Positions 2,231 through 35,211 are shown, counted from the stretch's first letter. The stretch is DNA of 64,000 nt from Escherichia coli (GCF_030013205.1 NZ_CP122648.1), one strand, 5' to 3'. Made by a program: numbers and translations. The notes: generated by a model not told the origin, from the letters alone.

Positions 2231-2707
2231 ATGCAACAACTTTCCTTTCTGCCCGGAGAGATGACAACCAGAGAGCGCAGTCTCATTCTGCGGGCCCTGA
2301 AAACCCTGGACCGCCATCTTCATGAACCCGGTGTGGCCTTCACCTCCACGCATGCGGCACGGGAATGGCTGATTCTGAACATGGCAGGACTGGAGCGGGA
2401 AGAGTTCCGGGTACTGTATCTGAACAACCAGAATCAGCTGATTGCGGGTGAAACCCTCTTCACCGGCACCATCAACCGCACGGAGGTCCATCCCCGGGAA
2501 GTGATTAAACGTGCCCTGTACCACAATGCCGCTGCCGTGATACTGGCACACAACCACCCGTCCGGTGAAGTCACTCCCAGTAAGGCAGACCGGCTTATTA
2601 CGGAACGTCTGGTACAGGCACTGGCCATGGTGGATATCCGGGTGCCGGACCATCTGATAGTCGGTGGCAGCCAGGTTTTCTCCTTTGCCGAACACGGTCT
2701 GCTTTAA
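2231..2707 (+). CDS. RadC-like JAB-domain protein (YeeS/YkfG/YfjY family)
   Basis: Motif HNHPSG...PS..D (JAMM-like) in translation; start at MQQLSFLPGE. Confidence 0.7.
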   Translation: MQQLSFLPGEMTTRERSLILRALKTLDRHLHEPGVAFTSTHAAREWLILNMAGLEREEFRVLYLNNQNQLIAGETLFTGTINRTEVHPREVIKRALYHNAAAVILAHNHPSGEVTPSKADRLITERLVQALAMVDIRVPDHLIVGGSQVFSFAEHGLL

Positions 2708-2775
2708 CCCGTCACCGTCACAACCACATCACACCTGTTTTCACTTTTATCTTCTGTCTTCAGAGGTATCCCACC

Positions 2776-2997
2776 ATGAAAATTATCACCCGTGGTGAAG
2801 CCATGCGCATTCACCGTCAGCATCCGGCATCCCGTCTTTTTCCGTTCTGCACCGGTAAGTACCGCTGGCACGGCAGCACTGAGGCATATACCGGTCGTGA
2901 AGTGCAGGATATTCCCGGTGTGCTGGCCGTGTTTGCTGAACGCCGTAAGGACAGTTTTGGCCCGTATGTCCGGCTGATGAGTGTAACCCTGAACTGA
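2776..2997 (+). CDS. YeeT/YkfH/YpjJ-family small protein (DUF987)
   Basis: 73-aa ORF MKIITRGEAMRIH... near-identical in my recollection to K-12 YeeT. Confidence 0.7.
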   Translation: MKIITRGEAMRIHRQHPASRLFPFCTGKYRWHGSTEAYTGREVQDIPGVLAVFAERRKDSFGPYVRLMSVTLN

Positions 2998-3015
2998 GTC
3001 AGGAAGGGAATTCTG

Positions 3016-3660
3016 ATGAGCAGAATTATCACCACCACCGTGTATACGCTGGATGAACTTTCCTGCCCGGCACGGGAAAAAGCCCGCGACGGGTACCGTC
3101 AGCATCATGCTGACAGCAACTGGTATGAAAACGTGTATGAAGACTTCAGGGAGGTCTGTGACATTTTCGGGATTAACCTCCGCCAGCGTGTTATCCGGCT
3201 CAGCAGTGGCAGGTTTATGGAAGAGCCGTGCATCTGGTTCAGCGGATTCTGCAGCCAGGGGGACGGAGCCTGTTTTGAAGGACGCTGGCACTGGCAGTCA
3301 GCAACAGCCAGGAGAATCCGGGAGTATGCCCCACAGGACCGTGAAATTCATCGTATCGCGGATGCCCTGCAGTCGGTACAGAAGCGTAACTTCTGGCAGT
3401 TACAGGCTGAAATCAGTCACCGGGGACGTTACTGCCATCCGTACAGCATGGATATCACCGTCACCCGGAACAGTCCGACTGGTCAGGTAATGACAACCGA
3501 TGCGGAAGCCGCTGTCAGCGAAGCCCTGCGCGACCTGGCCTTCTGGTTGTACCGTCAGCTGGAAAACGAGTACGACTGGCTGACCTCAGACGCCGCTGTG
3601 GATGAGGCCCTTCTCATCAACGAATACACCTTCACCGAAGCCGGTCTGCGCGCCGGCTGA
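3016..3660 (+). CDS. Hypothetical Cys/His-rich 214-aa protein, unassigned
   Basis: Clean ORF with RBS aggaagg 8 nt upstream of ATG; sits between yeeT-like and cbeA-like genes where K-12 clusters have no gene (recall). Confidence 0.5.
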   Translation: MSRIITTTVYTLDELSCPAREKARDGYRQHHADSNWYENVYEDFREVCDIFGINLRQRVIRLSSGRFMEEPCIWFSGFCSQGDGACFEGRWHWQSATARRIREYAPQDREIHRIADALQSVQKRNFWQLQAEISHRGRYCHPYSMDITVTRNSPTGQVMTTDAEAAVSEALRDLAFWLYRQLENEYDWLTSDAAVDEALLINEYTFTEAGLRAG

Positions 3661-31545: not shown

Positions 31546-31587
31546 AAAGCCAACCTTAAGAACTTAAGGTTGGCTTAATTTTGCTTT
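31546..31587 (+). terminator. Terminator after adiC
   Basis: aaagccaaccttaag / cttaaggttggcttt stem then aattttgcttt. Confidence 0.65.
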
Positions 31588-33934: not shown

Positions 33935-33943
33935 TTGAATCTG

Positions 33944-35035
33944 ATGCGTTTTCTGCGCCGACCAATATCGCTGCGCCAACGGCTGATATTGACCATTGGG
34001 GCCATTTTGTTGGTGTTTGAGCTGATCAGCGTCTTCTGGCTATGGCATGAAAGTACCGAGCAGATTCAGCTGTTTGAGCAGGCGCTACGCGACAATCGCA
34101 ACAACGATCGCCACATCATGCGTGAGATCCGCGAGGCGGTCGCCAGCCTGATCGTCCCCGGCGTCTTTATGGTCAGCCTGACGCTATTTATCTGCTATCA
34201 GGCGGTACGCCGCATCACCCGCCCGCTGGCGGAGCTGCAAAAAGAGCTGGAAGCGCGCACCGCCGACAACTTAACGCCCATTGCCATTCACAGCGCCACC
34301 CTCGAAATCGAAGCGGTGGTTTCGGCGTTAAACGATCTGGTCAGTCGCCTGACCAACACGCTGGATAACGAAAGGTTGTTTACCGCTGACGTCGCGCACG
34401 AACTGCGAACGCCACTGGCGGGGGTGCGTTTGCATCTGGAACTGCTGGCGAAAACGCATCACATTGATGTAGCACCGTTAGTGGCACGGCTTGATCAGAT
34501 GATGGAGAGCGTCTCCCAGCTGCTGCAACTGGCGCGTGCCGGACAGTCATTTTCTTCCGGTAATTATCAACATGTAAAACTGCTGGAAGATGTCATTCTC
34601 CCCTCGTATGACGAACTCAGTACCATGCTCGACCAGCGACAGCAAACCCTGCTATTGCCAGAGAGCGCCGCCGACATCACCGTTCAGGGTGATGCAACCC
34701 TGCTGCGGATGTTATTGCGAAACCTGGTAGAAAACGCCCATCGTTACAGCCCGCAAGGCAGCAACATTATGATTAAGCTGCAAGAAGATGGCGGAGCGGT
34801 CATGGCTGTTGAAGATGAAGGACCGGGTATTGATGAGAGTAAATGCGGGGAGTTGAGTAAAGCATTTGTACGTATGGACAGCCGTTATGGCGGGATTGGT
34901 CTGGGGTTAAGTATTGTCAGCCGCATTACACAGTTGCATCACGGGCAGTTTTTCCTGCAAAACCGGCAAGAGACTTCCGGCACGCGGGCCTGGGTACGGC
35001 TGAAGAAAGATCAGTACGTGGCAAACCAGATATAA
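33944..35035 (+). CDS. basS: Sensor kinase BasS (PmrB)
   Basis: About 363 aa; H-box ELRTPLA; ATG at 33944 (ORF track starts at TTG 33935). Confidence 0.9.
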   Translation: MRFLRRPISLRQRLILTIGAILLVFELISVFWLWHESTEQIQLFEQALRDNRNNDRHIMREIREAVASLIVPGVFMVSLTLFICYQAVRRITRPLAELQKELEARTADNLTPIAIHSATLEIEAVVSALNDLVSRLTNTLDNERLFTADVAHELRTPLAGVRLHLELLAKTHHIDVAPLVARLDQMMESVSQLLQLARAGQSFSSGNYQHVKLLEDVILPSYDELSTMLDQRQQTLLLPESAADITVQGDATLLRMLLRNLVENAHRYSPQGSNIMIKLQEDGGAVMAVEDEGPGIDESKCGELSKAFVRMDSRYGGIGLGLSIVSRITQLHHGQFFLQNRQETSGTRAWVRLKKDQYVANQI

Positions 35036-35100
35036 AGAAAGCTGCTGACCACCAGCACGCTGAACACGGTAGTTAAACTTTCATAAACACGGTTTTTCAT
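35011..35100 (-). CDS. pmrR: PmrR small membrane peptide (29 aa)
   Basis: Not in ORF track; reverse complement gives MKNRVYESLTTVFSVLVVSSFLYIWFATY; 3' end overlaps basS 3' end on the opposite strand. Confidence 0.75.
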   Translation of the reverse strand: MKNRVYESLTTVFSVLVVSSFLYIWFATY

Positions 35101-35103
35101 TGC

Positions 35104-35130
35104 ACTCTCCTCCGTTAACCTGGAGGAGAG
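35104..35130. terminator. Hairpin between convergent basS and proP
   Basis: ctctcctcc / ggaggagag stem. Confidence 0.45.
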
Positions 35131-35211
35131 TATGCGCGTCAGAGATTAAGTGAACCTTAAGACTTCAATTGGCCTGATAAGACAGCGTCACATCAGGCCA
35201 TCCGTTTCAGC

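Follow-up and report, generated by a model that had tools for sequence, protein, structure and literature searches.

pmrR at the 3' end of basS in Escherichia coli: a known small gene and its 25-nt antisense overlap

Introduction

When a very short open reading frame runs into the 3' end of a sensor kinase gene on the opposite strand, is it a gene, and does the overlap itself do anything? The question is posed by the basS (pmrB) locus in a 64,000-nt stretch of Escherichia coli DNA (GCF_030013205.1, NZ_CP122648.1), referred to here as the window, in which all positions are counted from the first letter. A sequence-only reading of the window had placed the small gene pmrR antisense to the last 25 nt of basS and described its product as a 29-codon membrane peptide and a known, PmrA-regulated feedback peptide; it further held that the overlap implies coupled sequence constraints and a possible antisense interaction. 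These are claims of different kinds, and they are treated separately below.

LpxT is the enzyme by which position 1 of lipid A receives its second phosphate. For Salmonella, published work describes a negative feedback of PmrR on PmrB through reduced Fe3+ binding. The primary Salmonella PmrR paper is reportedly that of Kato et al. 2012, which is also said to be the PmrR-LpxT binding study. According to the mechanism proposed in published work, phosphorylated PmrA (BasR) would activate the pmrR promoter, and the PmrR peptide would insert in the inner membrane and inhibit LpxT. Position 1 of lipid A would then be free for phosphoethanolamine addition by EptA, and this modification would lower the negative charge of the surface, increase polymyxin resistance and decrease deoxycholate resistance.

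In E. coli, pmrR has been described as overlapping pmrB, and its PmrA box alone was deleted in order to spare pmrB; a PmrA-constitutive strain treated in this way became polymyxin-sensitive and deoxycholate-resistant, and deletion of lpxT on top restored polymyxin resistance, which is genetic evidence for LpxT in this species (PMC8129183). In another study, Ribo-RET start-site reads of pmrR rose 5-fold in low Mg2+, a condition in which a reporter of the pmrR promoter was not significantly induced, PmrR-6xHis was located in the membrane fraction of E. coli, and the growth defect of a pmrR deletion was complemented by pmrR and not by an ATG-to-TAA mutant (PMC11429745). The same growth defect was independent of lpxT, so LpxT may not be the sole target of PmrR (PMC11429745). 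For E. coli the literature already covers the gene, its regulation and function, its overlap with basS and the overlap of the transcripts. Our own additions are small: the shared phasing of wobble positions in the overlap, the overlap lengths of 25, 7 and 0 nt in three genera, a likely origin of the overlap by stop loss, and the coincidence of the hairpin at the pmrR Shine-Dalgarno sequence with a reported 3' end.

Results

Identity of the 29-codon frame

The frame in question lies on the minus strand at 35011-35100 and runs from ATG to TGA over 29 codons and a stop (Table 1). A frameshift or a stop within it, which the sequence-only reading had named as a possible refutation, was looked for in the ORF list and in the sequence, and neither is present. 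Because the basS/pmrB frame on the plus strand ends at 35035, its stop included, the two coding sequences overlap by the 25 nt predicted. As many as 72 ORFs of at least 20 aa are found in the surrounding 5 kb, and an open frame of 29 codons is therefore by itself no evidence for a gene.

Table 1. Features of the pmrR-basS region and of the related promoter upstream of eptA, in window coordinates; arrows give the direction of reading on the minus strand
Feature	Position	Strand	Details
basS/pmrB sensor kinase CDS	33944-35035	+	K-12-style ATG start, 363 aa; Pfam HAMP, HisKA, HATPase_c
pmrR ORF	35011-35100	-	ATG to TGA; peptide MKNRVYESLTTVFSVLVVSSFLYIWFATY (ORF list)
Antisense overlap of the two CDSs	35011-35035	.	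25 nt; shared third codon positions 35014, 35017 ... 35032
Codons of the BasS tail YVANQI	35015-35032	+	six residues, in Escherichia only among 15 sequences
Terminator-like hairpin TGCTGGTGGTCAGCA with T-rich tail	35033-35057	-	inside the pmrR CDS, about codons 15-23; terminator scan
Conserved 11-bp hairpin	35103-35132	.	core arms CTCTCCTCC / GGAGGAGAG, 8-nt loop
Putative -10-like hexamer CATACT	35134->35129	-	10 nt downstream of the PmrA box; overlaps the hairpin 5' arm
PmrA box CTTAAGGTTCACTTAAT	35161->35145	-	exact YTTAAK-N5-YTTAAK; pmrR promoter
REP-like inverted repeat GGCCTGATAAGACAGCGTCACATCAGGCC	35171-35199	.	between the proP stop codon and the PmrA box; hairpin in the intergenic fold
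Other exact PmrA box in the window	31563-31579	+	upstream of eptA-basRS

The identity of the frame was established at the levels of peptide, DNA and gene order. The peptide-level database searches covered family libraries (NCBIfam and Pfam). In NCBIfam the 29-aa peptide matched the equivalog model NF033224, 'LpxT activity modulator PmrR', with 74.2 bits (E = 5.2e-21) against a curated cut-off of 30 bits, and the match was full-length, peptide residues 1-29 lying on profile positions 1-29 of 29. The Pfam search with the peptide returned no family for PmrR, its sole match being a weak and meaningless one to a transmembrane family. Alignment to K-12, which had been suggested as a check, showed that the DNA of the window is identical over 34900-35162, a segment that includes pmrR; in K-12 MG1655, pmrR (b4703) occupies 4332116-4332205 and basS 4332181-4333272, with an annotated overlap that is likewise 25 nt. 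A 361-nt query around the ORF had matches in 5408 of 5426 complete E. coli genomes. Under all matches listed, pmrB, pmrR and proP are annotated, pmrB being missing in one truncated match, and RefSeq has pmrR at this position in all E. coli records examined. The gene has proP on one side and pmrB/basS, with which it is convergent, on the other, as read from the ORFs, the RefSeq annotation of the identical region and K-12; ORFs in those Citrobacter and Salmonella loci that have long enough flanks show the same proP-pmrR-pmrB arrangement.

A strong Shine-Dalgarno sequence, GGAGG, lies 8 nt upstream of the ATG. The peptide begins with a short basic segment, MKNR, and its residues 9-27 form a hydrophobic stretch (mean Kyte-Doolittle value 1.94, 19-residue window), which is consistent with one predicted membrane-spanning segment. 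We conclude, with little room for doubt, that the ORF is pmrR, an already described protein-coding gene that is transcribed towards basS. The antisense position, the identity and the PmrA regulation given in the sequence-only reading were thus all borne out, the last of these by an exact PmrA box at 35145-35161 and by published work (PMC8129183, PMC11429745).

Some copies of the gene lie in other surroundings. Four of the 5410 matches to the 361-nt pmrB-pmrR-proP query were on plasmid-labelled records, and two copies were found in one genome. In E. coli PI7 (NZ_CP074033.1), an IS1B transposase gene (2248-3096) lies about 60 nt from the pmrR stop codon, eptA-basRS is absent, and yjdF and fumB are next in line; pmrR is intact and annotated there, without neighbouring regulator genes.

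Coding evidence across genera

For comparison, the window was aligned with 14 enterobacterial loci (three from Escherichia, ten from Citrobacter and one from Salmonella enterica subsp. arizonae), giving a set of 15 sequences. These loci, the usable ones among the matches listed, came from a contig scan in which the arms of the hairpin upstream of pmrR plus an ATG served as the pattern and which yielded at least 120 matches, mostly unrelated repeats (Verrucomicrobia, Rhodovibrio and others). The sample is small and biased to loci that keep the exact hairpin arms, and since the arms were fixed by the pattern it is uninformative on the conservation of the arms themselves.

The length of pmrR is 29 codons in all 15 sequences and in all three genera. 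Variable alignment columns number 16, 5 and 22 at codon positions 1, 2 and 3, respectively, and the pairwise codon differences comprise 658 synonymous and 657 non-synonymous ones. As judged from this alignment, the synonymous share is far above the expectation for unconstrained sequence and points to a coding-type pattern. The amino-acid replacements in PmrR are mostly conservative (V/I/L, S/T).

The scan pattern, CTCTCCTCC-N(4-12)-GGAGGAGAG-N(2-8)-ATG, also occurred on many contigs of single genomes, which among the matches listed included several Verrucomicrobia MAGs, a Pedosphaera MAG and at least eight contigs of Rhodovibrio sodomensis. This suggests that the pattern corresponds in those organisms to a repeat element, or to an anti-Shine-Dalgarno hairpin that is common there.

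The 25-nt overlap with basS

In the overlap, the two genes are phased so that their third codon positions coincide (Table 1). Among the Escherichia sequences the overlap contains six substitutions, five of which fall on the shared wobble positions and are silent in both frames; one of these five changes the basS stop from TAA to TAG. The sixth, in E. albertii, alters both proteins (A27T in PmrR and A360V in BasS). With wobble positions shared in this way, the overlap would cost little, and both genes can change silently together. On the BasS side, the HATPase_c match ends at residue 356 of 363 (Pfam), so that the YVANQI tail encoded in the overlap lies past the kinase domain match. An alternative start of basS, a TTG at 33935 that would give 366 aa (ORF list, PGAP), abuts the basR stop codon.

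The extent of the overlap differs between genera: Escherichia has 25 nt, Citrobacter, with a PmrB that ends in ...KDQ, has 7 nt, and S. arizonae has none, the two genes being separated there by an 8-nt gap. The difference between Escherichia and Citrobacter can be traced to one codon. BasS codon 358 (35015-35017) is TAC in Escherichia and a TAA stop in the Citrobacter loci with a readable pmrB, and the base that distinguishes the two is the wobble position of pmrR codon 28, which is, for instance, ACT in Citrobacter sp. R56 as against ACG in E. coli, Thr in either case. We infer from this comparison that the Escherichia overlap probably arose by stop loss: an ancestral pmrB TAA would have become TAC, and PmrB would as a consequence read through six added residues, YVANQI, antisense to pmrR, to the next stop.

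The claim that the overlap imposes coupled constraints was borne out only weakly by these observations. The coincidence of third codon positions and the five of six Escherichia substitutions that are silent in both genes speak for it; against it stands the fact that the overlapped part of BasS is only the six-residue tail past HATPase_c, absent in Citrobacter and S. arizonae. The simplest reading of the comparison is that the 25-nt overlap would be a tolerated, Escherichia-specific by-product and no device, with pmrR setting the sequence and the BasS tail following it.

The pmrR promoter

Exact matches to YTTAAK-N5-YTTAAK occur twice in the 64-kb window, against 0.09 expected by chance, and the two lie upstream of pmrR and of eptA-basRS. 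Each of the 15 sequences compared has the pmrR box 14 nt upstream of the core hairpin arm. The PmrA dependence of the gene is taken from published work in which deletion of this box in E. coli led to LpxT-dependent phenotypes (PMC8129183). Downstream of the box, the A at position 2 and the T at position 6 of the -10-like hexamer are invariant in 15 of 15 sequences, and we propose CATACT as the putative -10 element of pmrR. A scan for the sigma-70 consensus found no full promoter near pmrR, a result to be expected of, and uninformative for, a promoter that requires an activator.

The PmrA box of eptA lies inside the 3' arm of a 13-bp terminator-like hairpin (31547-31576) that is followed by a T-rich run and located downstream of adiC; this hairpin is therefore probably the adiC terminator. 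At adiC/eptA and proP/pmrR alike, a PmrA-dependent promoter is embedded in the 3' end of the gene before it.

A hairpin at the Shine-Dalgarno sequence

The Shine-Dalgarno sequence of pmrR forms, on the pmrR strand, the 3' arm (35113->35105) of the conserved hairpin, which has a predicted folding energy of -19.9 kcal/mol (z = -4.6) and is also present in the consensus structure of the Rfam family STnc630. In Salmonella, one of its flanking pairs is changed from A-U to G-C. Published 3'-end data place two transcript ends on the pmrR strand: one at K-12 position 4332117, equivalent to 35099 in the window and 4 nt past the stem, and a 'primary' pmrR 3' end at K-12 4332305, equivalent to 34911, 100 nt beyond the pmrR stop and inside the basS CDS (PMC10687069 supplement). 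In the main text of the same work, SEnd-seq is reported to show termination of the upstream gene inside the pmrR coding sequence (PMC10687069); the upstream gene on this strand of the window is proP.

The overlap of the -10-like hexamer with the hairpin's 5' arm makes it probable that transcription driven by PmrA begins within this arm or downstream of it. Judged from this arrangement, such transcripts would probably lack the 5' arm and have a free Shine-Dalgarno sequence, and RNA arriving from proP would probably have the Shine-Dalgarno sequence paired and end at the hairpin. A broader and distinctly tentative proposal, which we regard as possible and hold with low confidence, is that the hairpin does three jobs: it would hold the 3' end of proP RNA, hide the Shine-Dalgarno sequence in read-through from proP, and overlap the core of the PmrA promoter, with the result that translation would be confined to transcripts that PmrA initiates within the 5' arm. 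Their translation could in turn suppress the terminator-like hairpin within the pmrR CDS at 35043-35057. As a parallel to such a multi-job hairpin we cite the PmrA box seen nested in the terminator hairpin of the upstream gene at eptA.

Two further structures were considered downstream of the start codon. The stem of the terminator-like hairpin within the CDS also appears in the STnc630 consensus, and its conservation between genera is partial. A terminator of pmrR was looked for inside basS, where the RNA downstream of pmrR folds like shuffled sequence (z about 0). One candidate, CCGGAAG...CTTGCCGG-TTTT, was rejected as weak, the region folding no better than shuffled sequence, and with a weak candidate and an ordinary fold no pmrR terminator is annotated.

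The region just described has also been dissected in plasmid constructs by Xu et al., who note a 90-bp ORF with a 25-bp overlap downstream of pmrB (PMC8004244). In their work, 103-126 bp downstream of pmrB were required for colistin resistance from a pmrB mutant allele, and the downstream region, the site of pmrR, raised both pmrB mRNA and colistin resistance, which the authors regarded as a misfit with the Salmonella feedback model (PMC8004244). Placed on the window, a mapping that is ours and not the authors', the construct end points at +86, +103 and +126 after the basS stop fall at 35121, 35138 and 35161: the first cuts the hairpin, the second has the whole hairpin and the -10-like hexamer, and the third is the exact last base of the PmrA box. 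The reported outcomes at these end points were susceptible, 4 ug/mL and 16 ug/mL colistin, respectively (PMC8004244). The stepwise rise in colistin MIC could mean that the longer constructs regain the 3' hairpin of basS, the pmrR promoter, or both.

The Rfam family STnc630

The Rfam model RF02052, STnc630 ('Enterobacterial sRNA'), matches the minus strand at 35169->35004 with 181.4 bits against a gathering score of 55, over model positions 1-166 of 166. The model extends from the PmrA box through the Shine-Dalgarno hairpin to include the entire pmrR ORF; since all three fall within it, STnc630 and pmrR are the same locus. The name STnc630 seems to be an earlier designation of the pmrR mRNA together with its promoter. 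A search under the name STnc630 found no literature.

Discussion

Three other accounts of the locus have to be weighed against its reading as a protein-coding gene with an incidental overlap. That the frame is open by chance, antisense to basS, would fit the abundance of short ORFs in the surrounding 5 kb, but only 25 of its 90 nt lie inside basS, and chance is made improbable by the Shine-Dalgarno sequence and PmrA box, by a peptide conserved across genera and by the family match; we give this account practically no credence. Equally plainly rejected is the related idea of a frame that only mirrors basS and its codon usage, since 65 of the 90 nt are outside basS. Slightly less improbable, though still very hard to sustain, is the account in which the locus is a non-coding sRNA and the ORF is incidental. 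The full-length match to RF02052, 181 bits against a gathering score of 55, and the Rfam family type would favour it, but this model contains box, hairpin and complete ORF and is thus pmrR under another name. The ORF is moreover fixed at 29 codons, its second codon positions are the least variable (5 columns, compared with 16 and 22), an equivalog protein model exists in NCBIfam, and published work provides a Ribo-RET initiation signal, a membrane-fraction peptide and complementation that is lost when ATG is changed to TAA (PMC11429745). Non-coding action as the exclusive explanation is contradicted by these data; STnc630 does not behave as an sRNA should, and the account is effectively excluded.

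The least improbable of the three accounts is that the overlap is regulatory. Convergent transcription of pmrR and eptA-basRS would produce complementary RNA ends or polymerase collision, thereby lowering basS expression or altering the pmrR mRNA, and this RNA-level feedback (an 'excludon') would be added to the action of the peptide. The pair pmrR-basS is indeed among 165 convergent excludons of E. coli MG1655, listed on the criterion of RNA-seq coverage in at least 50% of 58 samples (PMC12288877); one of the mapped 3' ends, attributed to pmrR, falls about 100 nt beyond the stop of this gene, inside the basS CDS (PMC10687069 supplement); and in plasmid constructs the pmrB mRNA level shifts about 315-fold with the length of DNA downstream of pmrB (PMC8004244). 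However, both transcription units are under PmrA-dependent promoters (PMC8129183), with an exact PmrA box upstream of each in the window, so that joint induction is expected, and not the either-or expression by which an excludon is defined. The coding overlap itself varies, at 25, 7 and 0 nt in the three genera, the RNA downstream of pmrR has a fold z of about 0 relative to shuffled sequence, and induction of arnT by PmrA was unchanged after deletion of the PmrA box of pmrR (PMC8129183). We therefore consider a regulatory role of the overlap unlikely. As for the sequence-only reading, overlap of the transcripts is described in the literature (PMC12288877, PMC10687069), an antisense interaction is only weakly indicated, and the significance attached to the overlap was overstated.

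PmrR is relevant to resistance against polymyxin and bile salts, as it determines which group, phosphate or phosphoethanolamine, is added at position 1 of lipid A. For annotation, the locus is instructive in that ORF callers with a length limit miss pmrR and Rfam labels it as an sRNA. The overlap would be a small, clean case of antisense overlap arising without selection for overlap, in which one change silent in pmrR sufficed, and its probable origin by stop loss warns against reading function into it.

In comparison with known systems, the nearest relative is K-12 pmrR itself (b4703), from which the gene in the window shows no difference: the DNA, the peptide, the position between proP and basS, the 25-nt overlap, the PmrA box and the length are all the same. 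The PmrR of S. arizonae differs at 11 of 29 positions, and its gene does not overlap pmrB. Rfam STnc630 shares the locus and the strand; it is classed as an sRNA, while the evidence is for an mRNA encoding a 29-aa peptide, and the model includes promoter DNA. Within the PhoPQ/PmrAB network, MgrB and MgtS are, like PmrR, short single-pass membrane peptides that are induced by two-component systems and act on a membrane protein (PMC11429745). Their published targets differ, MgrB acting on PhoQ, MgtS on MgtA and PmrR on the enzyme LpxT, and no sequence relationship was found between PmrR and MgrB or MgtS. With convergent excludons, pmrR-basS has overlapping convergent transcripts in common: the two are convergent neighbours whose coding sequences overlap by 25 nt and whose transcript overlap is known from the literature (PMC12288877, PMC10687069), and the excludome compiled for E. 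coli includes the pair (PMC12288877). It is unlike the excludon type in that both partners are activated by the same regulator (PMC8129183).
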